Assembly: GCA_951406725.2 (NCBI GenBank)
Contig: OX597814.1
Span: 1,116,001 to 1,180,000, forward strand
Length of the DNA: 64,000 bases
Direction of reading: 5' to 3'
Origin: Octopus vulgaris
Lineage: Eukaryota
Shown here: positions 9,127 through 63,147 of the stretch, one piece after another
Layout of the letters: each line of letters opens with the position of its first letter
Position numbering within the stretch: the stretch's first letter is position 1
Program-made: the position numbers and the translations under genes
The notes under the pieces: generated by a model
Told to the model about the DNA's origin: nothing
Seen by the model: the letters and a program-made list of their open reading frames with translations, nothing else
The model's database searches: none

Positions 9127-9826
9127 TTAACGCTTTCGTTAGTGTATTTATTTTGAGATGCTCTGCGTTTCTTTCAATTAATTTTAAATATGACAAAGAA
9201 TTTAGTAAAACAACTTAGTTATCATTCAGCTAGTGTCAGGAACTTAAATTGTGACTAAGATTTGGTGGAAGATTTTTATTCAAAACTTATGAAAACAAGA
9301 CATTTGTACTACAGAGCCAGAGGTGGTTTCAGCTGGGTTGGTATCAAAAGGGTTAAATATATCATGGTGACTTTAACCCTTTTGTTACCATATTTCTATT
9401 GAGATGCTTTGTGTTTCTTTCAATCAATTTTAAATATAACAAAGAAATTAGTAAAATAAGTTCATTATCATTAAGCTAGTGTTAGGAACATAAATTGTGA
9501 CTAAAGTTTAGAGGAAGATTTTAATTCAAAACTTATGAAAACAAGACATTTGTACTACAGAACCAGAGGCGGTTTCAGCCTGGTTTGTATGAAAAGGGTT
9601 AAATTAGTTCTTTGTTAACTCTTTTGTTACGATATTTCTCTTGAGATGCTCTGTGTTTCTTTCAATTGATTTTAAATATAAACAAAGAATTTAGTAAAAC
9701 AACTTAGTCATCATTCAGCTGGTGTTAGGAACTTAAATTGTGACTAAGGTCTGGTGGAAGATTTTTATTCAAAACTTATGAAAACAAGGCATTTGTACTA
9801 CAGAGCGAGAGACAGTTTCAGCCGGG
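9127..9826. mobile_element. Three adjacent piggyBac-like MITEs (about 230 bp each, TTAA|CCC...GGG|TTAA)
   Basis: Units at about 9127-9356, 9373-9602 and 9616-9826 share sequence. Termini are ttaacccttt...aaagggttaa; the third unit lacks its right end. Confidence 0.8.
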
Positions 9827-9885
9827 TCAGTTGATTACATCAATTCTCAATACACAGCTGGTACTTATTTTACCGAACCCGAAAG

Positions 9886-12335
9886 AATGAAAGGTAAATT
9901 TGATGTTGGTGGAATTTGAACTCAGAATGTAAAAACGGCTGGAATGGCCCTAAGCATTTGGCGTGGCATGCCAATGATCCTGGGTCCCGCTGTCTCATGC
10001 CTGTCTTATAATGTTGCAAGTACTTCTAACCTGATGTATTCTCGTGGGCAGCATTTGATCCGTCCATTTTATGACAGCTAAATAATACACCTGGATTACA
10101 ACATCTAATTGGCGACGACATTTGTTCGTTTGTACATATTTCTATGGAAACGACTATAATTTATTTCCTTTCCAATGTTCTGTATAAATTGCTTTTATGT
10201 CAGTCATGCCTCAAGGGGGGGGGGGAGGGTCTGAAGCTGACCAATGAAACCAACTTTCAGTTTCCTTAGAATATGTCTTGTTATATTTATTTATTTTGTT
10301 ATCAGAGGTGTTTTGTTTTTTGTTTTCTTTTTTCATTCTTTCCCTTGTTTCAGTCATTTGACTGGGGCCATGCTGGGGCCATGCTGGGGCATTGCCTTGA
10401 AGGGTTTAGTCAAACAAATGAACCCCAGCGTTTAGTTTGAAATCTGGTGCTTATTCTCTTTTCACCAAACAGCTAAATTATGGGGATGCAAACAAACTAA
10501 CACTGGCTGTCAAGCAAGGGTGAGGAACACACACACAAACACACACACATGATAGCTTCCAAATTTGCCTGCAAGACCATAATTGGCTCAGGGATATAGT
10601 AAACACTTGTCCAAGGTTCTGCACCGTAGGACTGAACCTGGAACCACTTGGTTACAATGCAAACTTCTTAACCATACAGCCATTCCTGCACCTATCATAA
10701 TAAACATTTGTCAATTTTCTTTTATTGTTTTTTTTTTTCTTCTTTTTTCCCAGGATCTGTCAAATGGCCGGAACTTTACAAATTTATTACTCTCTTTAGT
10801 ATCATGGTGTCTGAAATTCAATTCTTCGAGCGAATCATTACTTACAGAAACTGGTAAGCATAACACTATTTGGTTACTTTTCTTATTAAAGCCACATCAT
10901 GGAATTTCACCATTTTTATGTGGTAGCCATAAAAACTGCGTGGATTAACACTTTGTCCAGGGCATCACGAGTGATAAAGGGGACAGGACCTATTTCCCTG
11001 GTGTCCATGCATTGTTTATGCTACACATTACTGATGTTTTCTAAATCACCAGAACAACTTGGGACTTATGAAAAGAAAGCTTTATATTACAGGGAATGTA
11101 TGAAACAGGATCTAACTAAATGTATGAAAACACGCTTGGACATTTAGGACAAACATATGGAAATACTCTGGACAGGCAAAGGGCTAATTTGAAGGTCAAT
11201 TTTGCGTAAATTTAATAAATGCCAAACACAACACTTGGATTATCATTTCATCATCATCATCATCATGATAAAATGCATTATTTGGATGGAGTTTATTGAA
11301 GCATATTTTCTATGGTTGGATGCCTTTCCTGTCTTCAACCTTATCTGTTTCCAAGTGAAGTAATGTTTCCTTGTGCTGTGTTTTTGCAGAATATCAGTTT
11401 CAAATTTTGGCACAAGGCCAGCAATTTCAGGGGAGTTGGGTAAGTCAGTTACATTGACCTCAGTGTTCAGCTGGTACTTATTTTATTGATCCCCACTCCC
11501 ACCCCCTGCCAAAAGGATGAATGGTAAATTTGATCTTGGTAGAATCTGAACTCAAAACTTAAGGGTGGATAAAAATGCCACTAAGCGTTTTGCCTGGTGG
11601 GCTAACAGTTCTGCCAGCTTGCCTCCTTCTTTTTGAAGAATATTGGAAATGAACGACTCTCATTTACAACACTGAAGCAATGTTCAGACAAGGGAACACA
11701 AACATATTCACCCACTCACATACAACACTCCACTCCGAGTGTGACTCCAGTCCATCACAGAGTTACTCCTTTACAGCTGAGTGGACTATAGCAATGTGAA
11801 ACGAATGAGGTGGTGGGTGGTGAAGCATGAACTTTGAACATTGGGCCTCACAGAGGCAATGATGAAAGACTGGGACCTCTGGAGATATGCTGTAATTGAG
11901 AAGACCTGGCAAGTAATGAAAGGTAAATTTGATGTTGGTGGAATTTGAACTCAGAATGTTAAAACGGCTGGAATGGCCCTAAGCGTTTGGCGTGGCATCC
12001 CAATGATCCTGGGTCCCGCTGTCTCATGCTTGTCTTATAATGTTGCAAGTACTTCTAATCTGATGTATTCTCGTGGGCAGCATTTGATCCGTCCATTTTA
12101 TGACAGCTAAATAATACACCTGGATTACAACATCTAATTGGCGACGACATTTGTTCGTTTGTACATATTTCTATGGAAACGACTATAATTTATTTCCTTT
12201 CCAATGTTCTGTATAAATTGCTTTTATGTCAGTCATGCCTCAAGGGGGGGGGGGGGAAGGGGTCTGAAGCTGACCAATGAAACCAACTTTCAGTTTCCTT
12301 AGAATATGTCTTGTTATATTTATTTAGTTTGTTAT
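9886..12335 (+). repeat. About 420-bp near-identical direct duplication (9886-10302 and 11915-12335)
   Basis: Direct reading shows only scattered mismatches, and both copies contain the poly-G tract. Confidence 0.92.
10754..10853 (+). CDS. LYST: LYST exon (phase 0 to 1): DLSNGRNFTNLLLSLVSWCLKFNSSSESLLTET
   Basis: Acceptor ttttttcccag and donor G|gtaagc. Resembles the N-terminal LYST segment ELLTLLLSLLPLVWK. Its phase matches the next exon. Confidence 0.8.
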
Positions 12336-22854: not shown

Positions 22855-24142
22855 CGAGGGGCGTTCAATAAATAATGCCCCTGACCCACTTCCCATAGCA
22901 GTAGAGCAACGAAACTTGGCACAGTTAGTCTTTTTCTACATAGGAACCACCCAGAGTTACGCATTTCTCCCATCGTTTGATGCAGCTCTGAAGACCGTTT
23001 TTGTAGAAGACCCCAGCTTGGTCCTCCAACCACGAAGTGACGTCAGAAATCAAGGCTGCATCATCTGGGAAACGTTTTCCTTTCAAAAACAACTTCATGA
23101 CTGGGAAGAGGTGAAAATCAGAGGGTGCAAGGTCAAGAGAGTAGGGGCATGGGGGAGGAGTTCATAGCCGCACGCCTGTGCTTCTGATCTGGCGACCATC
23201 GAGTTGTGGACCGGAGCGTTGTCCTGCAGGAGGAGGATGCCTTTGCTGATCTTGCCCTGCCTCTTGATTTTGATAGCTTCTCTTAATTTCATCAAAAGTG
23301 AAGCATAATAAGCTCCTGTAATTGTGGTACCCTTTGCCAGGAAATCTGTCATCACTACTCCGTCCTGGTCCCAGAAGACTATGAGCATGACCTTGCTAGT
23401 GGAGGGCTGCACCCTTGCCTTCTTTGGAGGAGGTGAGTCACGGTGCTTCCACTGCATTGACTGGGCTTTGGTCTCTGGATCATAGTGATGGACCCAGGTT
23501 TCATCCTGTGTAATCAGTCTTTTGAAAAATGTTGACTCATCTTCTTGGCACATCTCCAAATTCATCCTCGAGCACTCGACGCATTCTTGCTTCTGGAAAG
23601 GTGTGAGCAACCTGGGAATCCATCTGGCAGACACCTTTTGCATATGCAAATAGTCATGAATGATTGGTTTCCACAGACCCGGTACTAATCTTGACCTCAT
23701 GGGCTATTTGCCGAATAGTTATGCGTCGATCTTCCAAAATGGCAGCCTCAACTTGATGGACAGATGCCTCATCAATAGCAGTAGGGGGCGACCAGATCTG
23801 GGAGCTGTTTCCACAGAGTTCCGACCATGTTTGAATTCACAATGCCAGCGTTTTACAAGGTCATATGATGGGGCATCATCACCATAAGTTACTTTCATTT
23901 CATCAAAAGTCTCCCGTGGTGTGCGTCCTTTCAAATATAAAAAGCGGATCACTGCCCGACACTCAACAGGCTCCATTTCACACTTGACTCAGTTCAAACA
24001 CCTGTAAATCAGAAACCACAATTAGTTCAGAGCTGTAATTTACCACTTAATCTATAGAGATATAGATAATTGCACATGCAAAATTTCAGCTAGATCAAAC
24101 AACTGCAAGTGGGTCAGAGGCATTACTTATTGAACACCCCTC

Positions 24143-28070: not shown

Positions 28071-30652
28071 GTATTGAGAATTTATCATCAACACTCAAGA
28101 AATCTTTGCAGAACTTTGTCCCAACCAACAACAAGAAGCGGCAGCAAGTCTTCCCCAGTTGCCGCAAAGAACATCTCTTAGCAATAAGTCGGAAGCAGCT
28201 TCTGAATGAATACATGTCACTGGAAAGTAGCCGGGAGTTGCACAAAGCCATGAAACCAGCTCCTGTTATGGACCGCAGTACATCTGACTCGGAGGTTCAG
28301 GAACTCTCCGAGAGCAACCAGCCACCGACCAAGTGGAAACTAGATAAAAAACGCAAATATAAATTTGGTGAATCTCAGTTTCTGTCTTGGCAGAACCGTT
28401 ACCAAACGCTGAGTGAAGAAAATCTAAAAGGTATTCAACGTAGTAAAATCCAGGAGGTCTTCCATCCAGCCGAAACCTGTTTGCTTATGATTGATATCAT
28501 CCAGAACGTGTGTTTGCTGGACTTAAACCAAACGGTGCCCTCAAAGTTAGTGTCAGTCTCTTTGCTGCCTGAGTTGTTAGATGCTCTTTTTCGTTTCCAT
28601 GACATGTTCCAAAATCCAAATCCACAAGTATGGACCAAGGACATTCTAGCTTATATCCTAAAACACCTTTTGCAGTTGGTGTTCATGCTAAGCAATATAA
28701 CTGCTACACAACAAAATGGTTCCAGTATTTTGATCCGGAATCGGATATTCCCCAGTTTACTTTATTTAGCTCATGATCTTTTAGAAGATATTACCTACCC
28801 TGAGAACATAGTCTGGTCTGAAGTATCGGACCAGTGCCACGTTAAAATGGTATTGGTGTCCGACATCATATCAGGATTACTGCTCTGTGCTACTGAAGTC
28901 TTTCACAATATTCCACTGAATCCTGTTTTTATAAACTCAGCTTTAAAAGTTATGTGGATATTTAGAGAAGAACGAGGTTTTAGTATGTTGGAATTGATCC
29001 TTTCTTGGCTTGACTCTGAATGTTTCCCACATAAAGTTTGTAAAAAATTCTCCCCCAAAGACAATCTTTTAAAGTCAGTCAGCAGTCTTGTAATAGCCAT
29101 GAAGAAAGCCAAAGTTGGTTACATTCATTCTTCCACCTGTATGAAGAAGAAACACAGAAAATGTATTTATACTCATTGTTTTGATCATCACCATAATATT
29201 CTTGGCTTTGCTTTCACCAAAAATGTCAGCCGACAGAAACTGGATGTTTCTTCAGATATTTGTGTTGTTGGTTATTGGTCACAATTCTTACTTGATGTTT
29301 TACCGTTTCTCAAATCTAAGCAACAACAACTTCAAGTCTTCACCCTGTTTGTAACAGCTGGCATTTGTTGTTGTATCGGGATAGAGGTTATGCTGTCCAG
29401 CTTCCATTCGTCTTTCTATAATCTGTCTCCAGCTGTAAAGAACTATGCCTTAGACATCATGAACAATATGCTGCTGGAACAGTTGTCTGGTGCCAGACAC
29501 ATAGCACAGAAACCAAGTAAAATCGAAATTTGTAAGGTGTGTGAGGATGATTCCTTTGATACTTTTAGTGGTAAATTAAAACGTGGAATGGACCCAGACT
29601 GCAAAGTGAATCCAGAAGCACACGACAGTGGTGTGTCAAGTAGCGAAATATCATCAGAAGATTTCAAGTCTTCTATGAAGAAAGATTTGCTCAAGCGATG
29701 GGGATCCCTGGCCAAAATGTGTGATATCTTATATTCTGGGGACACAGTATCTGCTTCGTTACTCTCCAAACATTTGTTGATCTTAGCTGTCCATGGCAGA
29801 ACAGAAGTTAAACAAGAACTATTCCATTCCATTTATTTACCAATTCTTACAGACTACTGCAAGTGGAAATCCACAACACAACATATCATACCATCACCAC
29901 TCAGTAAATCTGTCATCATGAACTGTCTGTCTGCCTTTCCGTATCTCCTGCAAGCAGAGTCTGTCATGCCAACTTTCTTGGCTCGACATGGCATTGAAAA
30001 ATTATGGACGATTCTTGAGGACCCGTCTTTACAGGAACTTGTCTTGCATGTGTTCGAAGCTTTGATAATTGCTGACGAATATGTGTCATTAGAGAATATA
30101 TTAAAAGAGAACAAAGTATCGGAGAGGCTGATGGACGAGAACAGTCCTGTGTCCGACTTCTCCAGTGACGATGATCTGACCTACTGCAGTAACATGGTCA
30201 TTCGGTCGTTTTTGAAGATCTTATCTGAAAATATCAAATTACATGGTGTCTCTATTAACATACTTCCAAAGAACTTTCTAAAAGACTCTGAAATGAATGA
30301 TGGAGAAGAGGTGAACCAATTATCAGATTCTTCCATGCATCTAAAATGGTTCCTACTTTTAAGAAATCTATGGAGAACGTGTCAAGTTCTTTTGCTCAAT
30401 AGTCCCAGCTTTCTTCTCCAATTCAAAACCTCCGAATGTTTCATGCTTGCCAAACAGATTCTCTTCCACATCATACCGCAACTTGGGACTTACGCCAGTC
30501 CAACTCACCAATTCATGGAACCGGGTGTTTATAACAGCAATATCGGTGACCAACCCCTACAATCTGTACCAATCTTCCAACAAGCTCTCAGTCTTCTCGA
30601 GTCTGTACTTATGGCCTGTATCATCTGCTACATGCCAGCATTTGCAGCCAAG
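28071..30652 (+). CDS. LYST: LYST large exon (2582 bp, phase 1 to 0)
   Basis: Covers most of ORF 28106-30697. Acceptor tttctcacag|GT and donor AAG|gtaaca. Contains the Cys/His motif and GICCC motif of LYST. Confidence 0.95.
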
Positions 30653-47535: not shown

Positions 47536-47859
47536 TTGTGTCTTCTTTATTTTGACTTTGTGTGAGTATTGTGAATGATTGTCTCTGTCATGAATTTCCA
47601 TGTCTGACTTTGAAATGTTTTCTTGTTTGGAAGCAAGCGAAGTTTAGCAACAGGAAAGGCATCCAGCCATCAAAAGTCTCCTTCAATATATCTACTTGAA
47701 TGCCTCCGTTTCCCTATGCTTGCATACACACACACACCCTTACAAATGTATGAGAGAGAGACACGGAGAGAGAAGGCATTGATATAAATTTGATTTTTAT
47801 TACAATCCATTCTGTTGCAAGAATCTGTATTAAATAAAATCGCATTGTTGTTTGGGCAG

Positions 47860-47926
47860 GGTATTGCTGGACTAATACTCAATGGGATGAAAGAAGATCT
47901 CCTAGGAAAGACCTCCATAAATAAAG
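47860..47926 (+). CDS. LYST: LYST exon (67 bp, phase 0 to 1): GIAGLILNGMKEDLLGKTSINK
   Basis: Acceptor tttgggcag and donor AAAG|gtaatt. Bridges the phase 0 and phase 1 neighbours exactly. Confidence 0.78.
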
Positions 47927-48009
47927 GTAATTCAATATTTTCTTTTGCTTTTTTATAGTTTTGTAACATTTGACTTGTTTAATTTGTGTGACGTCGGTGG
48001 TCATTCATG

Positions 48010-48898: not shown

Positions 48899-49008
48899 AA
48901 ACCCAGATCTTGCTGTTCACATACATTCAACAGTTAGCACAGAACCAGATAACTGCTGCTGAACTGAAGCTGCTTCTACGTCTGTTCATGGAAGATGGCT
49001 CTCCCTAT
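48899..49008 (+). CDS. LYST: LYST exon (110 bp, phase 1 to 0): ETQILLFTYIQQLAQNQITAAELKLLLRLFMEDGSPY
   Basis: Acceptor tgttccag and donor TAT|gtaagt. Resembles LYST EELTLLLRIFLE. Confidence 0.9.
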
Positions 49009-49789
49009 GTAAGTTACACCATCCACATTCTTCACATTTGTAATCTTCATGGGTTTTTATTATTATTATTTTTTTTGTATCACACGAGTGTCTGTGGCAG
49101 TTGTGCAATGGCACCCTTCTGTCTGTTAGTTCTGTCAGTCTTATTGTATTCTCTGCCCATTGTAATTCTATCCATCTCTCTTTTCTCATTTATTTCTGCA
49201 TTATAAATATTTCTTTATTACCCATAAGGGGCGAAACACAGAGGGGACAAACAAAGACAGACAAAGGGATTAAGTCGATTACATCGACCCCAGTGCTTAA
49301 CTGGTACTTTATTTATTGACCCCGAAAGGATGAAAGGTAAAGTCGACCTCGGCGGAATTTGAACTCAGAACGTAGCGGCAGACGAAATACGTGTAATTCA
49401 TCCTGCACTTTGAGTGGAGATGATGAAGTAGATAAGATGTCTGTCACTGGCATTTCATCATCATCATCTTCATCATCATTTAATGTCTGTCTTCCATACT
49501 GGCATTGGTTGATTGTAGGAGCTGGTAGGACTGCACCAAGCTCCACTGTCTGCTTTGGCATGGTTTCTTTACAGCTGGATGCACTTCCTAATGTCAACCA
49601 CTTCACAGGGAGTACTGGATACCTTTTTTTATTCATAATTCATGAGACACGATCCCTACGACTATGTGGGAGATCAGTATTGAAGGAGGAGCATTGCGTC
49701 AGGTATTGAGAGGCTAAAGTATGATAGAAGGATAGGAACAGATAGAAAAAGATAAGGGATGGTGGAGACAAGGTCTCTTGTACCTTTAT

Positions 49790-50476
49790 CCCTTTCGTTA
49801 CCAACCCAGCTGAAACCGGCAATGGTTCTGAGTACAAATGTCCTGTTTTCATAAGTTTTGAATTAAAATCTTCCACCAAACCTAAGTCACAATTTGTGTT
49901 CCTAACACCAGCTTAATGATAACTAAGTTATTTTACTAAATTCTTTGTTATATCTAAAATAATTGAGAGAAACACAGAGCATTTCAACAGACAAAAGGAT
50001 TAATAAATGATTAATTTAACCCTTTCGTTACCAGCCCGGCTAAAACCAGCTCTGGCTCTATAGCACAGATGTCTTGTTTTCATAAATTTTCAATTATGAA
50101 ACCTTAGTCACAATTTATGTTCCTAACTCTAACTTAATGATAACTGAGTTATTTTACTAAATTCTTTGTTATATTTAAAATTAATTGAAAGAAATACAGA
50201 ACATCTCAACAGAAATATGGTGACAAAAAAGTTAACAAATGATTAATTTAACCCTTTCGATACCAACCTGGCTAAAACCACCTCTGGCTCTGAGTACAAA
50301 TGTCTTGTCTTCAAAAGTTCTCAATTAAAATCTTCCACCAAACCTTTGTCACAATTTATGTTCCTGACACTAGCTTAATGATAACTAAGTTATTTTACTA
50401 AATTCTTTGTTATATTTAAAATTAATTGAAAGAAACACACAGCATCTCAACAGAAATATGGTAATAGAAGGGTTAA
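49790..50476. mobile_element. Three adjacent piggyBac-like MITEs of the same family, opposite orientation
   Basis: Units at about 49790-50003, 50016-50235 and 50248-50476; reverse complement of the 9.1-9.8 kb units. Confidence 0.8.
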
Positions 50477-52675
50477 GGTACCAGAAGGTGGATGTAAGAG
50501 AGAATATAGTGGATAGGTTTAAGACAGTGTGAGAGAAAAGTGACAGACAGTTGGAGATGGAGATAGAGGTGAATGCAGTGAATGGTGAACTGGGGTGGAA
50601 ATATGGTCAATGGTGAATCGCCAGTTGGGTTGGGTGAGGCATAAAAGAAAACATGAGTGAGGGAGGATGAGGTGATTGTAACAATTCACAAAATGGATGG
50701 GGAGGAGAAAGCAACAGTGTAATAAAACTGGAGATAAATAAGAAATAAGATGACATGAAGTGTTGGCTAGAGAGAAGATGCAGAGTGATAGAGATGGAGA
50801 TGAGAGCCATGTAGGGGTGGATGTAGTGATCAACAACAAAAACAAAATAGGGTAGAGGTGGTGGCTGTGAATGGTAGATATAAGAATGTATTCAGAGGAA
50901 AAGGGGAATTTACTGGAAAAAAAAGTGCTGAGGGATGACACCAAAACAGTGGCGGAATATGTGCAGTTCTGCTCTCGTTAGTCTTTTAGTCAGCATGAAT
51001 CCCTTATTCCATTTTCTTCCACTTCTCATATTCTTCGGAAAGGTATGAATGTCACAACATCTCAGTGAGTGCAGGCATAGCCATGGTGTTAAGAAGTTCA
51101 CTTTTAAATGAAGTTGTTCTATGTTCAACCCATCTCTGCTGTACCTTGGGCAAGTTCTTCTACTTCAGCCTTGGGTTAATCAAAGCTTTTTAGCTTTCTC
51201 AGTGAGACTGGGCTAACAGAAACTACGCAGGAGTCCCTCAGCTGGACTACACTTGTTTTAGTGTGGTAGACTTCATCTCTCGTCTGGTTTTGCACCACCA
51301 CCTTTGAGTGTCATTTGACTGCAGCCATGCTGGAACACCACCTTTGGTCAAACAAATCGACCCCAGCACTGATTCTTTGTAAGCCTAGTACTTATTCTAT
51401 CGGTCTCTTTTGCCAAACCGCTAAGTTACTGGGAGGTAAACACACCATCATCAGTTGTTAAGCAATGGTGGGAAGACAAACACAGACACACAAATACATA
51501 CATACAATGGGCTTCTTTCAGTATCTGTCTACCAAATCCACTCACAAGGCTTTGGTTGGCCTGAGGCTGTAGTAGAAGACACTTGCCCCTAAAGTGCCAC
51601 GCAGTGGGACTGAACCCGGAACCATGTGGTTGGGAAGTAAGCTTTTCACCACACAGCCACTCCTGTGTGTGTATATCATGATGGCATCACTACGACTCTT
51701 GAGGTCCCAAACAAAGAATGTAAAGAATTGGAAATGCAGTTAAGCATTTCATCCAAAGCAGTAATGGTTCTGCCATCTTTCTGCATTTAATAGTTTCAAA
51801 TTTTTGCGCAAGGCCTACAATTTTAGGGAAGGAATTAATTGATTACAGCATTTTGTCTGGTATGCTGATGCTTTTGCTTGCTTACTGCCTTAATCATCAT
51901 CATCATCATCATCATTGTCGTTTAACATCTGCTTTCTATGCTGGTATGGGTTGGATATTTTGACTGAGAGTTGGTAGGCCAGGAGGCTGCACCAGGCTCC
52001 AATCTGATCTGGCAAGGTTTCTACAGCTGGATGCCCTTCCTAATGCCAACCACTCAGAGAGTATAGCGGGTGCTTTTTACGTGCTACTGGCACAGGAGCC
52101 AGTCAGGTGGGACTGGCATCAACAAGGCTCGAATGGTGCTTTTTATGTGCCACCAGCACGGGTGCCAGTCAGGTGCCACTGGCATTGACCATGACCATGA
52201 TTTCACTCAGTTCAACAGGTCTTAGCAACATTAAACAACAACAACAATAATGGATTCAAGTTTAGACACAAGGCCATCAATTTCCCGGGAGTGAGGGTTG
52301 TCTGTGGCATTGGCCCCAGTTTTAACTTGTACTTATTTTGTTGACCCTGAGAGAATGAAAGGCAAAAATCAACCTCAGCAGAATTTGAGCTCAGAGTGCC
52401 CCCAGATTAGCTCCTGTGCTGGAGGCATGTATAAAGTATCCACTACACTCTCGGAGTGGTTGGCATGAGGAAGGGCATCCAGCTGTAGAAACATTGGCAG
52501 ATCAGATTGGAGCCTGGTGCAGCCTTTTGGCCTCCCAGTCCTCAGTCAGACTGTCCAACCCATGCCAGCATGGAAAGCAGATGTTAAACAATGATGATGA
52601 TGACTATAAAAATAGATGAAATGCCACTAAGCATTTTGCCTGGCATACGTACGACTCTGCCAGATTCACACCTTA

Positions 52676-52714
<39 letters not shown>

Positions 52715-52964
52715 CCTTGCTACTAAAGGCACAAGGCCTGAAATGTGTGGTCAGGGGATTGGGTGATTACATTGACTCCAGTGTTTCACTGGTACTTAAT
52801 TTATTGACCCTGAAAGGATGAAAGGTAAAGTTGACCTCGGCGGAATTTGAACTCACAATGTAGCAATGGGTGAAATACCGCTAAGCATTTTGAAAAACCT
52901 GCTAACAATTCTGCCATCTCGACACCTAATAATAATAATAATAATAATAATAGTAATAATAATA

Positions 52965-53007
<43 letters not shown>

Positions 53008-53074
53008 TAATAATAAAAATGATGATGATGATTTAAAAATGCTAATTAATGGTCTGTAATTGTCTCTCTGTCAG

Positions 53075-53243
53075 GATTTACTGCTGTCCACCCTAACAGG
53101 GATTGTTGAAAACTATAGAGTGTCACCAACTCATTATGTCCAGTTCCCGGTAACGAGACAGGATTCAAGCAACTCTAATTACAACGGCAGCAGCAGCATC
53201 AACAGCAGCAGCAAACACAAGATGGAGTCTGGCTGTGATAATG
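53075..53243 (+). CDS. LYST: LYST exon (169 bp, phase 0 to 1): DLLLSTLTGIVENYRVSPTHYVQFP...GCDN
   Basis: Acceptor ctctgtcag and donor ATG|gtattt; a phase-1 end is needed for exon 55706. A possible alternative donor CCG|gtaacg lies at 53149. Confidence 0.82.
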
Positions 53244-54685
53244 GTATTTTATCTCTCCTTTTTTTTCATTTTTTCATTATTTATTTTGTTAATTTATTTT
53301 TGTCTTCTTCACTTTTCCTCACAACAATATTTCAAGAAATCATGAAGGCAATATTTAGGTGGCATTTTCTCCAGTGTGAAAGCAATTGGCCTGGTGGTTA
53401 GGGTGTTGCACTCCTGATTGCTAGACCATGGGTTCAATCCCTGGACCGGATGGTGCATTGTGTTCTTGAGCAAAACCCTTCATGTCACATTGCTCCAGTC
53501 CATTCAGCTGTGAATGGATAACCACCCTGCGATGGAAAACTCTTCTAATCATGGGGAATGTTGGCCACCCCACCTAGCCAGTGGAGTGGCGTCATTCAAG
53601 AGCTAAAACAGTGTGAAGCACATTGTGCCCATACATGTGTCGGTCATTGCCTGTGCTGCCTGACTGGCTCCCCGTGCTAGTGGCATGTAAAAAGCACGAT
53701 CTGAACGTGGTCGATACCAGCTTGACTGGCTCCCGTGCCAGTGGTACATAAAAAATACCACCAAACATGGTCAGTACCTGACCCCCTCACCTAGACTGGC
53801 TCCTGTTGCCAGTGGAATGTAAAAAGCACCATCCAAACGTGACTGATGCTAGCTTGACTGGCTCCCATGCCACTAGCACGTAAAAAGCATCATCTGAATA
53901 TGGTCAATGCCATCCCCCTTGCCCTGTCTGTCTCCTGTGCCAGTAGCATGTAAAAAGCACCCACTACACTCTCGGAGTGGTTGGCGTTAGGAAGGGCATC
54001 CAGCAGTAGAAACACTGCCAGATCAGACTGGAACCTGGTGCAGCCTCCTGGCTTGCCAGTCCCCAGTCAAACCGTCCAACCCATGCCAGCATAGAAAACG
54101 GACGTTAAACGACGATGATGTATAACAACATCATAATAGTATGGCCAATACCATAACTTTCTCCAGTAATAGTTGTTGTAATGTTTCCCAATAGGGTATG
54201 TAGCTTGGAGATGAAGGATGCTCTCCCAGTTGAGCTGCTATTTTTCTGCATTGAAAGGTCACAACTCTGGTACTGCGGACATGGGAGTAGAATGCCATAG
54301 GGAAGAATTGCAAGACAAATTCTTCAAGCTGACCGAACCAGTTGAAAACCTAGGGGTAGACCAAGAACGCAGTGGTTGGACAATGTCCGCAGTCTGAGTT
54401 GCTTGGGAATCTGCTACGAAAATGCAATGACTTGCTTTGGTTAGAATCCTATGCAGGAGGGACCTGAAGACTCTACCCCTTCTCAGAACCCTCCACTAGA
54501 GTAAAATAGTAATAAAGGGGCTCCTTAGATAGAAAAATGGTTGAGAATCATTGATCTGTGGAGTTCATCTGTCTGCTAGAAATAGTAGCCAAATCTTCCT
54601 CAAATCGAATAGCACCTTACTGCTTTAAACAATGTTGGATAAATTGCATGATGTAGTCCAAGATATATTAAATCTTAAAAAAAAA

Positions 54686-55716
54686 ATGAGATGGTCATGG
54701 TTGGACTACTCTCCCTCTTAAGTCAGCTGGATCAGCACAGACCCTATCTCACCCCCTGCCCACACCTTGTTACCATTGTTCACCCTACAATTCTTTTCCA
54801 GATGTTCACCAAAGATGAGATGGTCATGGTTGGACTACTCTCCCTCTTAAGTCAGCTGGATCAGCACAGACCCTATCTCATCCCCTGCCCACACCTTGTT
54901 ACCATTGTTCACCCTACAATTCTTTTCCAGATGTTCACCAAAGATGAGAGGGTCGTGGTTGGACTACTCTCCCTCTTAAGTCAGCTGGATCAGCACAGAC
55001 CCTATCTCATCCCCTGCCCACACCTTGTTACCATTGTTCACCCTGCAATTCTTTTCCAGATGTTCACCAAAGATGAGAGGGTCGTGGTTGGACTACTCTC
55101 CCTCTTAAGTCAGCTGGATCAGCACAGACCCTATCTCATCCCCTGCCCACACCTTGTTACCATTGTTCACCCTGCAATTCTTTTCCAGATGTTCACCAAA
55201 GATGAGAGGGTCGTGGTTGGACTACTCTCCCTCTTAAGTCAGCTGGATCAGCACAGACCCTATCTCATCCCCTGCCCACACCTTGTTACCATTGTTCACC
55301 CTGCAATTCTTTTCCAGATGTTCACCAAAGATGAGAGGGTCGTGGTTGGACTACTCTCCCTCTTAAGTCAGCTGGATCAGCACAGACCCTATCTCATCCC
55401 CTGCCCACACCTTGTTACCATTGTTCACCCTGCAATTCTTTTCCAGATGTTCACCAAAGATGAGAGGGTCGTGGTTGGACTACTCTCCCTCTTAAGTCAG
55501 CTGGATCAGCACAGACCCTATCTCATCCCCTGCCCACACCTTGTTACCATTGTTCACCCTGCAATTCTTTTCCAGATGTTCACCAAAGATGAGAGGGTCG
55601 TGGTTGGACTACTCTCCCTCTTAAGTCAGCTGGATCAGCACAGACCCTATCTCATCCCCTGCCCACACCTTGTTAACCATTGTTCACCCTACAATTCTTT
55701 TCCAGATGTCCACCCT
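54686..55716 (+). repeat. 129-bp tandem array (about 8 units) duplicating the LYST 3' splice acceptor
   Basis: Near-identical units. AG acceptors end at 54801, 54930, 55059, 55188, 55317, 55446, 55575 and 55705. The array gives a 43-aa repeat in ORF 54691-56175. Confidence 0.97.
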
Positions 55717-55909
55717 GGCAGCAGTCCAAAGGTGATCAGTCTAGCACCAGTCACAATGCAAGTGTCCAATCTATTACCGTGGCCACCCTACCAGAATGGC
55801 TTCAGTGTGTCACTATGGTTACAGCTTGGCGACGAGGTTCTACCTGACCAATGGATTCCAGGAACCAGATCGAAGGAGAAGATGATGCAGGATTCGACGG
55901 ACATGTTTG
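55706..55909 (+). CDS. LYST: LYST exon (204 bp, phase 1 to 1): DVHPGSSPK...WPPYQNGFSVSLWLQL...DMF
   Basis: Last acceptor of the 129-bp array (ttcttttccag) and donor G|gtgagt. WPP..GFSVSLW marks the start of the ConA-like domain of BEACH proteins. Confidence 0.88.
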
Positions 55910-56341
55910 GTGAGTCAATAGAGCAACCTCATTCTCTTCTTCTGGTTTATCATCATTGTCATCATCACCATCATCGTCATCATAGTCATCATCATCACTG
56001 TCACTCTTTTCAGTTCTCTCCAAGAAAGGTTTTGCATTTCTGTTCGGTGGCACGTTCAAAGCACCAACCGATCGTGGCCGATGCCAGACTCCCCTGGCAC
56101 CTGTGCCGGTGGCACGTAAAAAGCACCCACTACACTCGTGGAGTGGTTGGCATTAGGAAGGGCATCCAGCTGTAGAAACACTGCCAGATCAGACTGGAGC
56201 CTGGTGCAGCCTTCTGGCTTCCCAGACCCCGGTCGAACCGTCCAACCCATGCTAGCATGGAAAACGGACGTTAAACGATGATGATGAATTTTCTTACATT
56301 TTACCAAAATTCAATTTCCAAATGTTTTCTTAATTCTTCAG

Positions 56342-56507
56342 ACAATGGTGACCACCACAAGACCTGGTTGAGGTCGAATCTATCTCATCAGACCCCTGAT
56401 GCAGCTTCTTACATTAGCAACGAATGTCTACACATTTTCTCTGTAGGCACAGAAGAAAAGATGTTTGAGATATGGGCTGACCCCTGCATTGGAACCCTTG
56501 TTGTCAG
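56342..56507 (+). CDS. LYST: LYST exon (166 bp, phase 1 to 2): DNGDHH...CLHIFSVGTEEKMFEIWADPCIGTLVV
   Basis: Acceptor aattcttcag and donor CAG|gtttgt; contains the WADP motif. Confidence 0.88.
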
Positions 56508-56609
56508 GTTTGTTTCTCACTTTCTGTTGTTTTTTTTCAGTTACTAAGTCTGGTTATTCATGATGCCTTCAATATAATGCCAGCATCATCATCGTTTTTG
56601 TTAGCCTTG

Positions 56610-56877
56610 GGCCTCATGGAGGCAAAGTGGCTGAGTTCCTTTCGAGTGTTGAGCCTCATGGAGGCAAAGTGGCTGAGTTCCTTTCGAGTGTTGAGCCTCA
56701 TGGAGGCAAAGTGCCTGAGTTCCTTTTGAGTGTTGAGCCTCATGGAGGCAAAGTGGCTGAGTTCCTTTTGAGTGTTGAGCCTCATGGAGGCAAAGTGCCT
56801 GAGTTCCTTTCGAGTGTTGGGCCTCACGGAAGCAAAGTGGCTGAGTTTCTTTCGAGTGTTGAGCCTCACGGAGGCAA
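56610..56877 (+). repeat. 42-bp minisatellite (about 6.5 units)
   Basis: Unit gttgagcctcatggaggcaaagtggctgagttcctttcgagt. Confidence 0.9.
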
Positions 56878-57964
56878 TGACCGAGACCTTTGGCATTATG
56901 TCATGCTTGAGAAGAAGACCCATCAAGCTGAGCAAAATCGCAGTCGTGGCAGATACTGGTGCCACTCAAATGGCACCTGTGCTGTGGCACGTAAAAGCAC
57001 CCATTACACTCTAGGGGTGATTGGCATTAAGAAGGGCATCCAGCTGTAGAAAACCATGCCAAATCAGAAGGAGTCTGGTGCAACCTTCCAGCTTGCCAGC
57101 CATGGTCAAACCATTCAACCCATGCCAGCATGGACAACAGATACTAAATGATGATGATGATGATTCATTTTCCATGTTTGCATGCATTGGGGGCAGAGTT
57201 CATCATAGAGGTGGATTTTCTACCCCTGGATGTCCTTCCTGTTGCCAAAGTAATGTTTTTCCCATGTCTAGACACATTTTTCAAAGAAAACTGGAAACAA
57301 CAAAGAAGACTGCAAATAAGATCGCTTGTATGACAAGGACGTTCATTTACAACCATCACATGATGTCAAGACAAGGACGGACACACACACACACACACAC
57401 ACTAATACTGAACTGTGAGAATGAGTGTTCAACACCACGTTGGTAGATAAATACTCACAAGGCTTTGGTCGGCTCGAGGCTATAGTAGAAGACACTTGCC
57501 CAAGGTGCCACGCAGTGGGACTGAACCAGGAACCATGTGGTTGGGAAGCAAGCTAATTACTAACAGCCACTCCTGCACCTGATGTCAACTTTGACATGGT
57601 TCCTACAGCTGGGAGACCTTCCTAATACCAACCGCTTTACACATTGTATTGGGTGCACTTTTTGTGACACCAGCACTGGGGAGGTCACCAATTAACTTGT
57701 AAGACAGAAAATAACCGGAAAGAGAAAAGCCTCTGTATCTAAGCAGGTGGGTGGGTATTTGAGAGTGGGCTGGGGAGGTGGTTTTTATGTCCGATGTTGA
57801 GAGGCTAAAGTATGACTGAAGGACAGGAATGGGTGTCTTGCTGCAGAGAAGATACCTGTCACTCATTCACTCCAGTTTTAATCACTGTTTGTCGAAATAT
57901 CAAAGACATAACAATTGACACTCCCTTCCCCCTCCACATATATATTTATATTTTATTTGAACAT

Positions 57965-58631
57965 TGGGCTTCATAGTGGCAATGACAGGAGACCGGGACC
58001 TTTGGAGATACGCTGTGATTGAGAAGACCCAGCAACTAAAGTGAGATCGCAACCAGGCATGTCCAGCCCTGTTAAGAATACCCCTGATGCATCAGGTGAT
58101 ATGATATACTTGAGAAGACCTGTTGAGTCGAGTAAAACCAATATTGTAGCTGTGGCCAGTGCCCCCTGACTGGCTACCGTGCCATTGGCATGTAAAAAGC
58201 ACCATCCAAATGTGGTCGATGCCAGGTCCACCTGACTTGCTCCTGTGCCAGTAGCAAGTAAAAAGTACCAACTGAACCATGGCCAATGCCAGTACCCCCA
58301 GACTGGCTCCTGTGTCGGTGGCCTGTAAAAAGCACCTTCCAAATGTTTGTTGATACCAGGTCTGCCTGCCTGGCTCTCGTACTAGTGGCACGTAAAAAGC
58401 ACCATCCGAACTTGATCAATGCCAGGTCCACCTGACTGGCTTTTGTGCCAGTGGCACATAAAAAGCACCTACTACACTCTTGGAGTGGTTGGTGTTAGGA
58501 AGGGCATCCAGCTGTACAAACCTTGCCAGATCAGATTGGAACCTGGTGCAGCCGCTGGCTCTTGAGACCTCAGTCAAACCATCCAACCCATGCCAGCATG
58601 GAAAACAGACGTTAAACGAGGATGCTGATGT
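57965..58631 (+). mobile_element. RTE-LINE 3'-UTR-derived repeat with internal ~60-bp minisatellite and (GAT)n tail (representative of many copies)
   Basis: Shares ggcaatgac...gagaagacc with the RTE fragment at 48010-48430 and ends ...catgccagcatggaaaacagacgttaaac(gat)n. Copies include 1198-1620(-), 12375-12965, 16725-17190, 43835-44170, 53640-54120 and 56590-57163. Confidence 0.8.
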
Positions 58632-58791
58632 CATGTTACATCTATGGAAGAACTTTTGATCACTTGGGACTGCTGGACAAATAAATGAATTAAGCTGACC
58701 TTTGGCAATGATTTATCCTGGAATTATGGGATTCCAACAGTTTGCTGCTGCTGCTACTTTTAATAGTATTTTTTTTTTTTTTTAATTTCAG

Positions 58792-58927
58792 GTTAACTAG
58801 TTTGGTGTCAGGTAGTACAGTCATCCTGAAAGAATGTTCTGCTCCAAGCTTACTCAACACGAATCGGTGGCACCACTTGATATTGCAGTATCGTGAAGTC
58901 CTTGATGAAAACATCCTGTCAGGAAAG
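58792..58927 (+). CDS. LYST: LYST exon (136 bp, phase 2 to 0): RLTSLV...NRWHHLILQY...SGK
   Basis: Poly-T acceptor aatttcag and donor AAG|gtaaga; WHHL lectin-domain motif. Confidence 0.9.
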
Positions 58928-59094
58928 GTAAGAACTGTCTGTCGGCACCTCTTTGAAAGTTTTACTCAAGACACTCGCCTCACCTGAAGGCATTCTTCCC
59001 ATCTGATGACAGTTACCTGGTCTGAAGACTCTTGCCTTGCCTGACTAAACACATTTGTTTTAACTGACTTACCTGTATGTTGTATCTGTTTCAG

Positions 59095-59269
59095 GTTTCC
59101 ATTGTGCTGGATGGCTGGTGGTCTCAGGAAATGGTATTGGATCATTCCAGAGACATTCGTATGACCCAGCTAGAACCGACTGTCTACTTGGGACACACAA
59201 GGAATTACAGGAACCATTTGCTTAATCGCAAGAAGTCTTGGTATCTTGGTCCACTCATGCTTTTTAAAG
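59095..59269 (+). CDS. LYST: LYST exon (175 bp, phase 0 to 1): VSIVLDG...WYLGPLMLFK
   Basis: Acceptor ctgtttcag and donor AAAG|gtactc. Confidence 0.9.
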
Positions 59270-59389
59270 GTACTCTTGTTGTTCTTGTCTTAAAAGATCT
59301 GCTTCCATCTCTGATCTCTTCACCTTAACTGCTCTCCTCTTCTCTAAAAATGTTGTCTGAATTCTTTTATTATTTCTCTCATTCTTCAG

Positions 59390-59583
59390 GTGCTAACTTA
59401 TCCCAAGAGATCTGCTTTCATCTCCATGCTCTTGGCCCCAACTGTTCCTCAATCAGCAAGTGTGACTGTTCTGAGCAGGCGGCATCTTATATTCCTCAAC
59501 TGTTCAAGAATGTTGTTTGTTTCTCTGGAGTTTCCACAGACACTTTGGTTGGCATCAATCAAGTAAATCTGGACACTGCTAGA
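59390..59583 (+). CDS. LYST: LYST exon (194 bp, phase 1 to 0): GANLSQEICFHLHALGPN...DTAR
   Basis: Acceptor attcttcag and donor AGA|gtaagt. Confidence 0.9.
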
Positions 59584-60408
59584 GTAAGTTCCTTTGATGA
59601 TTCTTGTGTTCAAAAAATTCCTATTTTCTTAAATCTACAAAGACTTCTTCCAAGATGCAGTCTCTCCCTTGTCACCACTTCCTTAAAGTTGCCTAGTTTC
59701 TCCATAACTTCAATATCTAATGTCTTAACAGCAGCAGCAGCAGTGCAGGCGCAGTTGGAGGATCGCGGTTTCGATTCCCAGACCGGGCGTTGTGTGTGTT
59801 TATTGAGCGAAAACACCCACAGCTCCACAAGGCTCCGGCAAGGGGGGGGGCGACCCCTGTTGTACTCTTTCACCACAACTTTCTCTCACTCTTTCTTCTT
59901 GCTTCTTATCCCCGACTTCCTATGCAACCGCTGAGCCTGGATGCGCATTCATCCATCCGTCGATGCTCTCGGTGTCGGGGGTTGACCTGCTTTCTCTTCT
60001 GTGGGTCTTACGAATAGCAAAGGACCACGTTTCGGACTTCTCCCACTACACTGGGACGAAGACCGCTTTGCCCAACAAACAAACAAGCAATAGCAGTTGT
60101 TACAAGATCTAAATCACAGCAACATACTTTGGAGGAGAAAAACAGGGTGTATTAAAGAGTGAGGTAAAACATGAACTTTGGTTTTGGAAGTATCATTGTT
60201 GTAATGTCTGCTTTTCCATGCTTGCAAGAGTCAAATGGAATTCATTGAGGCAGATTTTTTTGTGGCTGGGTGCCCTTCCTGTCACCAACCCTCGCCTGTT
60301 TCCAAGGAAGGTAAAATTTCCCTCCATGGCCAGACATGTGTTCATGGAAGATTGGAAATGGACACCACATGCATGACCTTGATGCTCATTTCCATCTATC
60401 ACACGTAC

Positions 60409-60446
<38 letters not shown>

Positions 60447-60938
60447 CATTATCATCGGTTAATGTCCATTTTCCATGCTGGCATGGGTTGGACAGTTTGA
60501 CTGAAGACTGGTAAGCCAGGAGGCTGCACAAGGCTCCAATCTGATCTGGCAAGCTTTCTACAGCTCGATGCCCTTCCTAATGCCAACCACTCCGAGAATA
60601 TAGTGGGTGCTTTTACATGCTACTGGCATGAGGGTCAGTCAAGTGGCACTGGCATCTACCATGCTTAAACTGTGCTTTTTATGTGCCACGGGTATGGGAA
60701 CCAGTCAGGCGGTACTAGCATCGACCACGCTCAAATGGTGCTTTTTACATGTCACCAGCACAGGAGCCAGTCAGGTGGCACTGAGATTGACCATGTATAT
60801 ATATATATAAAGCTTTGTTCAGGATAGCATTGAAGCAATACTGTTTAATGTCCCGGTAATTATTCTGTTCTACCATGTTGTTGCTGTCATTCCTTGCTTC
60901 TTTGATTCTAATTCTGGAATTTCTTTCCGTTTCCACAG

Positions 60939-61214
60939 AACAACCTAATTCTAATCTACAACCCACAACACCCGAAATTGTTTAGCCTTTACTGTGCTGG
61001 TGGATCATCCCAGCTTCCAAACTCCCTCGGGCTCACCCTTGGAATATTGCCACCTTCCATGATCCAGTCCAGGGATCTCCTTGAACAACATCCATTGGTT
61101 GTACCGGTCAAGGTGGCACCATCCCTGGAGATTTTGGCTTGCTTCAAGAACTGTCTGGAACAATCAGCTGAAGAAATGGGAGGAATAAACGTATTTATGT
61201 TCCTTGTTGCAAAG
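60939..61214 (+). CDS. LYST: LYST exon (276 bp, phase 0 to 0): NNLILIYNP...EEMGGINVFMFLVAK
   Basis: Acceptor tttccacag and donor AAG|gtgagt; conserved GG...F.FL.A motif. Confidence 0.9.
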
Positions 61215-61350
61215 GTGAGTATGCGGGGGAAAGTGGACTGGTCCATGTAGAGAGGTGGGGGTGTAGAAGAATGAACAAATGTGTTGAGTGGAGCAGTGGA
61301 AGAGAATGGACAAATTGATGTAGAGAGATATATAGGATGGTTGATGCGTA

Positions 61351-62128
61351 GCTCCCTATTTTAAAATACTTATAAATTATTTATTAATTAAAATTTTTTT
61401 CTCATTTTTTTTCTTTGTATTTGTTTTTTGAGGTATGAGAATTTATTCTTTAATTATCGAAATCGATCAAAAATCAATGGAATTTGTTGTTGTGATACCA
61501 GTGCTGGTGGCACGTAAAAGAACCATCCGAACGTGGCCGCTGCCAGCGCCGCCTTGACTGGCCTCCATGCTGGTGGCACGTAAAAAGCACCAACCGATTG
61601 TGGTCGTTACCAGCCTTGCCTGGCACATAAAAAGCACCCACTACACTCTCAGAGTGGTTGGCATTAGGAAGGGCATCCAGCTGTAGAAACACTGCCAGAT
61701 CAGACTGGGCCTGGTGCAGCCTCATGGAAAGCGGACGTTAAACGATGATGATGATGATGATGATGATATATTGCTCTTATCATTCACAAATGACCGAATG
61801 CCCGCTTACCCAGGAGATGGACGCGTCATTGTTGTCCGCATGAATGGTCAGCCAAAATGGTTAAAGAAACAAGTCTGCCGTACCAAACGAAAGACTTTGG
61901 AAGAACTTGAAGGGCGAATACGAGAAGTTATAAGTCTTTCCATCACATCGGAGTTCCTGGTGCAATCAGTTGATGCAATTCCTGGGAGACTCAAAAAGCT
62001 GGTGGCGACATCTGGAGCCCATATCGAATTTTAAATAAAACCCCATACTAAAAGCTTTCTTCTCATATCCATTTTCTCGTAAAAATTACAATTAATAAAT
62101 AATTTATAAGTATTTTAAAATAGGGAGT
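61351..62128 (+). mobile_element. Internally deleted Tc1/mariner-superfamily element with a nested RTE-tail repeat (about 61460-61768)
   Basis: TIRs of about 38 bp (CTCCCTATTTTAAAATACTTATAAATTATTTATTAATT) with TA flanks. C-terminal transposase remnant WLKKQVCRTKRKTLEELEGRI...RLKKLVATSGAHIEF. Confidence 0.8.
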
Positions 62129-62749
62129 TACTTTCCAGTTGCCCTGTAGAGAGAATGGACTGGTCCATATTGAGAGGTGTGGAGAGAATGAACTGGTTCT
62201 TGTGCAGAGTAGGTGTGAAGAAAATGGATTGGTCTATGTAGAGGGGTGCAAAGAGAGTGGATTAGTCCATATCGAGAGACCGTGTGAAGAGGATGAGCTG
62301 ATCCATTTAGAGAGGAATTGTGGAGAGAATGGTAAAAGAGAATGGATTTAGGATCGGACCAGTACATCATTGCAGCAGACTGTTCCAGTGATTGTTATGT
62401 ATTATTTGGATAATAGGCAGCAAAAACCTCCCACATTTTACAGGTTAACAAACGTTTTTAACTGCAAACTCTTGGTGTGCCCCAGTTCAAACCATGATGG
62501 TGACTGAAAAATAAATGGTAAAACATCAGCTACATGAAGACCCCGTTACATACCATTAACCTCTCTGGCATCAAAACAATGGCTGTGTAAAATAGGGGAG
62601 GTTTTTCTGCCGCACTCTCTCTCTTCTGCTATTCTTACCATTATCATGGCCCTTTCAACAAACCCCTCCACAGGTACTACTACCATCACCACCATCCCCA
62701 TCACAACTGCCTTGCCTACCATCCTCGCCACCAATCATCACTACCACCA

Positions 62750-62796
<47 letters not shown>

Positions 62797-62919
62797 TCAC
62801 CATCCCCATCACAACTGCCTCGCCTACCATCCTCACCACCAATCATCAGCACTACCACCACCACCACCACCACCACTGTATATGAACTACCACTGTGGCT
62901 TTATTTTATATAATTACAG

Positions 62920-63147
62920 GTATTTGAAAAGTGCCGGCTCCCTTCAGATGACAGCGATCAGGGATTGAACTTGTTACAGATGCGGCAAGACATGGAAAAA
63001 CTGCAGGCGTCAGCCCTAAACCTTCTGTTCCAAATGATCAAACAAGTACCGTCAATGTGTCTGCAGTATATGGAATCTCAAGGAGATCGGATGATTTCCA
63101 GAGTCTTGGAAACTTCAAGAAGTTTAATTTCTTTCCGTATTTTAAAG
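62920..63147 (+). CDS. LYST: LYST exon (228 bp, phase 0 to 0): VFEKCRL...LQASALNLLF...RILK
   Basis: Acceptor taattacag and donor AAG|gtaatt; in frame with ORF 62965. Confidence 0.88.

Follow-up and report, generated by a model that had tools for sequence, protein, structure and literature searches.

An eight-copy tandem array of acceptor splice sites at the end of a predicted intron in Octopus vulgaris

INTRODUCTION

Duplicated splice sites that are tolerated by the genes carrying them are already known, as is evident from human CBS and F7. The CBS 844ins68 variant is a natural duplication of an intron end together with a few exon bases. According to the available passages of the reports on this variant, the distal of the two identical acceptors is used and the mRNA is normal (PMC1802585; PMC2630376). 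The same passages report that G runs between the sites drive the distal choice, and one passage calls the duplicated sites donors (PMC1802585; PMC2630376). Intron 7 of human F7 contains a 37-bp VNTR whose end unit spans the exon boundary. The accessible sections of the F7 report describe five to nine identical donors, only the exon-adjacent one of which is used (PMC1557585). The remaining pseudo-sites are presented there as functional but silent by position, which was tested with 50 constructs, and the length polymorphism of the array is known (PMC1557585).

Acceptor choice can also depend on the branch point. In the portion of the lariat survey by Gao (2008, PMC2367711) available to us, the region 21–34 nt from the intron end held 83% of human branch-point clones, the consensus is yUnAy, and branch points that are lost are often replaced by neighboring ones. 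Among the papers listed for the animal group that includes the octopus, none gave branch-point data, and no many-copy acceptor array was found in the open-licence literature searched.

Here we analyze 64,000 nt of Octopus vulgaris DNA (assembly GCA_951406725.2, contig OX597814.1, positions 1,116,001 to 1,180,000 of the forward strand), hereafter called the window. Near the end of one predicted intron, the window carries eight tandem copies of an acceptor that differ at the likely branch point. An eight-copy acceptor array with such a built-in difference is a ready-made experiment on 3′ splice site choice. It could separate the effects of branch-point strength, exon sequence and position, and it comes from an animal group in which splicing has been little studied.

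RESULTS

Exon model of the host gene

A nine-exon model extending from 48899 to 63147 encodes 552 aa and is free of stops. Five further exons upstream of this model are open, one of which is predicted as a single exon of 2582 nt (28071–30652; 860 aa) of the same gene. The part of the model that surrounds the array consists of the following features:

53075–53243, + strand: predicted upstream exon of the nine-exon model, with donor ATG/GTATTT at 53244, phase 1
53244–55705, + strand: predicted phase-1 intron (gene model), with the array at its 3′ end
55706–55909, + strand: predicted exon of 204 nt, phase 1-1, with donor TTG/GTGAGT (gene model and coding score)

The donor at 53244 scores 6.6 bits on a matrix made from the 14 other donors of the gene, and the T content across this boundary changes from 0.16 to 0.58. 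The coding score of the 204-nt exon is 0.085 bits/nt in frame versus −0.032 and −0.115 in the other frames. All comparisons with other acceptors use 13 acceptors from our own gene model; the exon near 47800–47926 was omitted, its acceptor not being resolved. The open exon-like stretch in that region (47794–47955) has a clear donor at 47927.

Several other features of the gene region were recorded. The upstream exon closes on a linker rich in Ser and Asn (53151–53243) in which short GCA repeats occur, and there is a donor-like site at 53150. A 42-bp array of 6.5 copies at 56607–56877 lies ∼100 nt past the donor of the next exon, with several frames open. A degenerate 36-bp array at 62150–62332 is similar to 61215–61260, which lies just past donor 61215 at the opposite end of the same intron. 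Direct repeats of 421 bp that are 97.4% identical (9886–10302 and 11915–12335) sit on both sides of predicted exon 10754–10853, and recombination between them would remove this exon. Ahead of the same exon is a 246-bp unit in 2.9 copies that are ∼85% alike (9127–9827). An ORF of 202 aa on the − strand at 23095–23703 resembles a fragment of a Tc1/mariner transposase.

LYST, the name given to the host gene in a sequence-only reading, is a candidate that is suggested by weak leads and by no sequence match. The peptide of this gene appears to resemble human LYST. Three homolog searches covering proteins up to 2000–2490 aa only came back empty, and human LYST is 3801 aa long according to the consulted part of its description (PMC11106369). 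Likewise, a representative protein search, Pfam and PDB gave nothing of relevance, and a paper search with a peptide motif of the gene was empty. For the 860-aa exon, the Atlas leads are armadillo/HEAT-like clusters, among them a WDFY4 fragment (0.93). For the exon after the array they are weak and ConA-like/laminin-G (0.76–0.77). The recognition values of the Atlas leads fell short of the threshold of the tool. A fold of the exon from its single sequence had a pLDDT of 51.6. LYST is described, in the same partial source, with the domain order ARM/HEAT, ConA-like, then PH-BEACH-WD40 (PMC11106369). The octopus gene resembles this BEACH family member in being large and multi-exon, and its weak Atlas leads would fit the first two parts of the LYST order; it differs in that BEACH and WD40 parts are not seen within the window. 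The splicing argument below is independent of the name.

The array and its units

The array of tandem repeats occupies 54682–55714 on the + strand and comprises 8.0 copies of a 129-bp unit (TRF, 99% matches; alignment). Each unit is composed of ∼120 nt of intron end followed by the first 9 nt of the exon, as judged by the same two methods. The acceptor AGs end at 54801, 54930, 55059, 55188, 55317, 55446, 55575 and 55705. Thus, the spacing is 129 six times and then 130. We refer to the first seven acceptors as decoys. The elements of the array are:

54799–55575, + strand: seven decoy acceptors (CAG), with an exon-frame TGA at +15 to +17 after each
55670–55689, + strand: local direct repeat of 10 nt, TTGTTAACCA/TTGTTCACCC, whose two copies are in register only when the A of unit 8 is present
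55671–55677, + strand: TGTTAAC, likely branch point with its A at 55676 (−30); unit 8 only; U2-pairing score 5.0
55681–55687, + strand: TGTTCAC, second branch-point candidate with its A at 55686 (−20); all eight units; U2-pairing score 4.0
55687–55705, + strand: pyrimidine tract and terminal acceptor CAG (sequence and acceptor scoring)

The branch region reads TTGTTACCAT in 7/7 upstream units and TTGTTAACCAT in unit 8, which is 130 bp long. Unit 8 has AA at 55675–55676, and which of the two is extra is indistinguishable. A sequence-only reading of this locus had described seven units without and a last unit with an extra A, 130 rather than 129 bp in length, and both the AG spacing and the unit reads bear this out. 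Its placement of a yUnAy adenosine at 55676, 29 nt before the acceptor, is reproduced (position −30 with the final G as −1, leaving 29 nt between the A and the exon). So is its TTCAC motif ∼19 nt upstream of every AG, whose A is at −20 in all eight units. That the A marks the last acceptor holds in part: the A occurs only in unit 8, but it is not the sole mark, as exon base +5 (55710) is also private to this unit, being C there versus T in all seven decoys.

The core of the acceptor (−14 to +2) is identical across all eight sites in the alignment, and units 3–7 are identical to one another throughout. Unit 1 alone differs at positions 13 and 80; variants at positions 20 and 25 are common to units 1 and 2, and an A at unit position 115 is common to units 1, 2 and 8 only. 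In all, the array contains four distinct unit types. One GGG is present in each of units 3–8 and none in units 1–2. A T-to-G change at unit position 20 makes this GGG just after decoys 2–7 (54949–54951, and the same place in units 4–8). No further copy of the 129-bp unit was found elsewhere in the 64-kb window, and the possibility that the repeat is a dispersed element was rejected on the finding that the window holds no other copy.

Position and exon context of the last acceptor

The acceptor core scores 7.0 bits in all units, within the range of the real acceptors of the gene (1.3–14.2). The context of the eight sites is different. With the donor at 55910, the exon would be 204 nt long from the last AG versus 334–1108 nt from the decoys, and 12 of the 13 other modeled exons are 276 nt or shorter. 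The best GT inside the unit scores 1.1 bits as a donor, whereas the real donors, each left out singly, score 0.6–11.2, with 13/14 above 2. From the normal donor at 53244, only the last AG keeps the frame. Splicing from it to any of the seven decoys gives four codons and then the stop at +15 to +17, which falls 317–1091 nt before the next junction. These comparisons point to the last acceptor as the one likely used, chiefly on account of the exon and donor that come after it.

Other explanations for the array were tried and rejected. Tandemly duplicated or mutually exclusive exons do not fit the weak internal GT and the stop after 7/7 decoys. Recursive-splicing ratchet points would require AG/GT, whereas all eight junctions are AG/AT. 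RNA structure does not hide the decoys, since the last acceptor is predicted to be no more accessible than they are, and mostly less so, at its AG and its two branch candidates. Two units fold no better than shuffles (z −0.20). A known RNA family within the array was also rejected: the two weak Rfam matches in 53244–56341 are both outside the array and below the gathering score.

Branch-point candidates

Pairing with U2 was scored over six positions (GUAGUA), with 1 for a pair and 0.5 for a wobble. TGTTAAC at −30 scores 5.0, the best of all sites scored, with all six positions paired and two of them wobbles. The same place in a decoy scores 3.0, and TGTTCAC at −20, scored in five of the eight units, reaches 4.0. 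At nine of the 13 other acceptors, even the best site does not exceed this −20 site of the decoys.

The −30 motif is also one that the gene appears to favor. Within −18 to −40, 5/13 other acceptors have a yTAAy, compared with a frequency of 7.6% among 224 pyrimidine-rich YAG sites taken as background (binomial p 0.002). All five are located at −28 to −33. A window of −26 to −35 (p 6e-5) was picked after the data had been seen, and we quote the −18 to −40 result instead. No yTCAy was found at −18 to −25 in any of the 13. However, yTAAy is absent from 8/13 other acceptors, and 4/13 lack any yUnAy in −18 to −40.

A human matrix of lariat-derived frequencies (Gao 2008, Table 4; PMC2367711) ranks the candidates differently. 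On this matrix, which is human and not that of the host, all five units scored have their best site at −20 (5.64 bits), a value above the best site of 11/13 other acceptors. The A raises the −30 site by just 0.14 bit, from 3.11 to 3.25. The human data of Gao (2008) thus agree with the octopus site in part: TTAAC fits yUnAy and −30 is inside the 21–34 nt range, but the matrix favors the common −20 TTCAC and makes little distinction between TTAAC and the GTTAC of the decoys. TTAAC at −30 is probably the true branch point of the last acceptor, because both its motif and its position match those favored by the gene (5/13 vs 7.6%). An earlier suggestion that the A completes a branch point therefore seems probable, given also the best U2 pairing (5.0).

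Gain or loss of the A

The −30 site is destroyed by 39 of the 861 distinct single changes to unit 8, whereas only 3/855 single changes to a decoy create a site scoring at least 5. Similarly, among distinct single insertions into a decoy unit, 1/382 yields a site that pairs this well with U2. Because destroying changes so outnumber creating ones, loss of an ancestral A in a duplicate is more likely than a gain. The initial description of this base as extra has its polarity probably wrong. The 10-nt direct repeat, in register with the A, is a weak hint in the same direction.

The history of the array may have been as follows. A first duplication would have made two copies, of which the upstream one lost one A (TGTTAAC to TTGTTAC) and picked up a few substitutions. 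The number could then have risen to eight through slippage or unequal crossing-over between upstream copies, with the deletion spreading to all seven decoys and no need for selection. The decoys count as one event rather than seven, since the deletion would have arisen once in the first upstream duplicate and then been copied. By arithmetic, a given change has a 4.5% chance of destroying the site, and 3–7 changes have a chance of 13–28%. These figures are a mild hint of selection for a disabled decoy, which may have occurred but need not be invoked. Each of the two end units has two differences of its own toward the outside of the array (positions 13 and 80 in unit 1; the A and +5 in unit 8). 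Private differences at outer ends are normal for edge copies of arrays.

Reading frame of the repeat

The repeat is open in a frame of its own. Two features are relevant:

54679–56175, + strand: repeat ORF, stop to stop, 498 aa with 43-aa repeats; the A links it to the exon frame
53147–53155, + strand: in-exon donor-like site CCG/GTAACG, intron start 53150, phase 0; 2.5 and 2.1 bits

The ORF does run through into the exon, so that the A shifts the repeat ORF into the exon frame as the sequence-only reading had noticed. That reading also took the shift as a mark of the functional acceptor, which does not stand: the shift has no bearing on normally spliced mRNA, because any decoy joined to the normal donor meets a stop 15–17 nt past its AG. 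Only a phase-0 entry would make use of the link that the A provides. The donor-like site at 53150 would supply such an entry; joined to decoy 1 or 7 (the two tested) it gives no stop, while with the last AG it gives five.

The repeat ORF and its link to the exon frame are probably incidental. The same open link occurs in 14% of 5000 shuffled units, and phase-0 donor-like sites are common (0.66 per 169 nt of exon). The coding score of the repeat ORF is −0.043, below 12/12 held-out exons, and 6/6 substitutions among the repeats are non-synonymous. The repeat ORF as a protein was rejected; the Pfam scores of its 498 aa are noise that adds up over the repeats, and no stretch of it passes. A representative search with one repeat plus the exon returned a single match, an unrelated repetitive protein. 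The 53151–53243 segment has an in-frame coding score of 0.064, which is reached by 1.2% of 3309 intron window-frames.

DISCUSSION

The explanation that we favor, with moderate confidence, is that the acceptor is chosen mainly by position and exon context, aided by an ancestral branch point lost from the decoys. Under exon definition, the donor at 55910 would be paired with the acceptor closest to it, giving the 204-nt exon. The decoys, which carry just 9 nt of exon, would be poor competitors. The stronger −30 branch point may add to the bias for the last acceptor without being required. Any RNA spliced to a decoy, in which the stop is seen 15–17 nt on, would presumably be removed by nonsense-mediated decay. 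Identical cores, a normal exon size at the last AG only and the lack of a good donor within the unit all agree with this explanation. So do the decoys' retained branch candidate, which is equal to or better than the best in 9/13 other acceptors, and the human matrix that barely sees the A. In the partial sources cited above, moreover, the distal CBS acceptor is used and identical F7 donors are silent by position. However, the A falls on the favored branch motif and position of the gene, and with yTCAy at 0/13 other acceptors the decoys may be weakened at −20. The 2582-nt exon indicates that long exons are possible in this organism, and exon length alone is not decisive. In addition, early globin experiments with duplicated sites, as recounted in the sections of the F7 report that were available, found proximal use, and another group the opposite (PMC1557585). 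A reading in which the −30 TGTTAAC itself is decisive makes more of this evidence. In such a scheme, which is the sequence-only idea with its polarity reversed, loss of the A would have silenced the first duplicate, only so could the decoys have expanded to seven, and a single A would pick one acceptor of eight. The site does have the best U2 pairing, its motif and spacing recur at 5/13 other acceptors as opposed to 7.6% of the 224 sites in the background, it is absent from all seven decoys, and only 39/861 single changes would strike it. Yet 8/13 other acceptors do without yTAAy and 4/13 without any yUnAy in the −18 to −40 interval, the −20 site is retained and ranks first on the human matrix, the deletion common to the decoys is one event, and CBS and F7, as far as the consulted passages describe them, need no branch-point difference. 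We consider this scheme unlikely. That the A at 55676 alone decides the acceptor is not supported, and the sequence-only inference that the choice would rest on one nucleotide is weakened by the identical cores, the kept −20 site, a matrix shift of 0.14 bit, the second private base of unit 8 at exon +5 and the differing exon context.

In a rival explanation, the decoys would be used appreciably, their stop-bearing RNA degraded and the output of the gene tuned by copy number. Their cores are of middle strength (7.0 bits; real 1.3–14.2) and are transcribed first, their AG and two branch candidates are predicted to be no less open than those of the last site, and every one gives a stop far upstream of the next junction. 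Since the extra sites in CBS and F7 are strongly disfavored or silent in the accounts available, we regard appreciable leakage as improbable, more so than a decisive branch point. It is very improbable that the decoys serve a coding route in which donor 53150 is spliced to a decoy, the 43-aa repeats are translated and the A restores the exon frame, inserting one to seven repeats. This route is stop-free with decoy 1 or 7 while the last AG brings five stops, and its donor scores inside the low tail of real donors; but the 93 nt that would be removed (53151–53243) score as coding, which argues that the later donor is the main one, and in-exon sites (0.66) and the open link (14% of shuffles) are common. 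The repeat ORF also scores as non-coding, 6/6 substitutions change the amino acid, and the only match is an unrelated repetitive protein. A difference of A versus AA is a typical long-read error. This being the kind of difference that long reads get wrong, and units 3–7 being identical and hence open to mis-assembly in number, the one-base difference or the copy number could in principle come from sequencing or assembly. However, unit 1 also lacks the A ∼90 nt from unique flank, the array has four distinct unit types, the open 2582-nt exon indicates that indel errors are rare here, and 1/382 random insertions would give such a site. An artefact is therefore hardly to be expected, and the A in particular is unlikely to be a random error, given the 1/382 insertions and a unit 1 without the A beside unique sequence.

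The array can be tested cheaply, with one base swap and with the GTTAAC restriction site at 55672, which is unique within 54600–56000. If the A proves to decide, it would show how a minor lesion permits a splice-site repeat to expand, and the locus would be a natural branch-point-gated array offering a direct test of branch point versus exon definition in an invertebrate. If the A does not decide, the position rule extends from donors to many-copy acceptors. Exon sequence would be a further variable. Classic globin work reportedly found that whether a duplicated acceptor is used is determined by the adjoining exon sequence.

Among known systems, F7 offers the multi-copy parallel: both are tandem arrays with the end unit over an exon boundary (8.0 copies at 54682–55714 in the octopus). 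The F7 VNTR is a donor array and thus the mirror image of the acceptor array described here, its unit is shorter, and its copy-number polymorphism is known, whereas the octopus array was read from one haplotype. There is likeness also to the CBS 844ins68 type, in which the duplicated segment also spans the pyrimidine tract, the AG and the first exon bases, and in which the cores are identical. CBS has two sites versus eight in the octopus, and its choice is reported to be driven by G runs, whereas the copies here differ at the likely branch point. Use of the distal site is shown for CBS in the passages cited and would be expected for the octopus array. The G runs reported to favor the distal CBS site could have a counterpart in the GGG of units 3–8, absent from units 1–2. 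In its sequence features, then, the octopus array belongs with the CBS type and is a real natural test case of a known kind.
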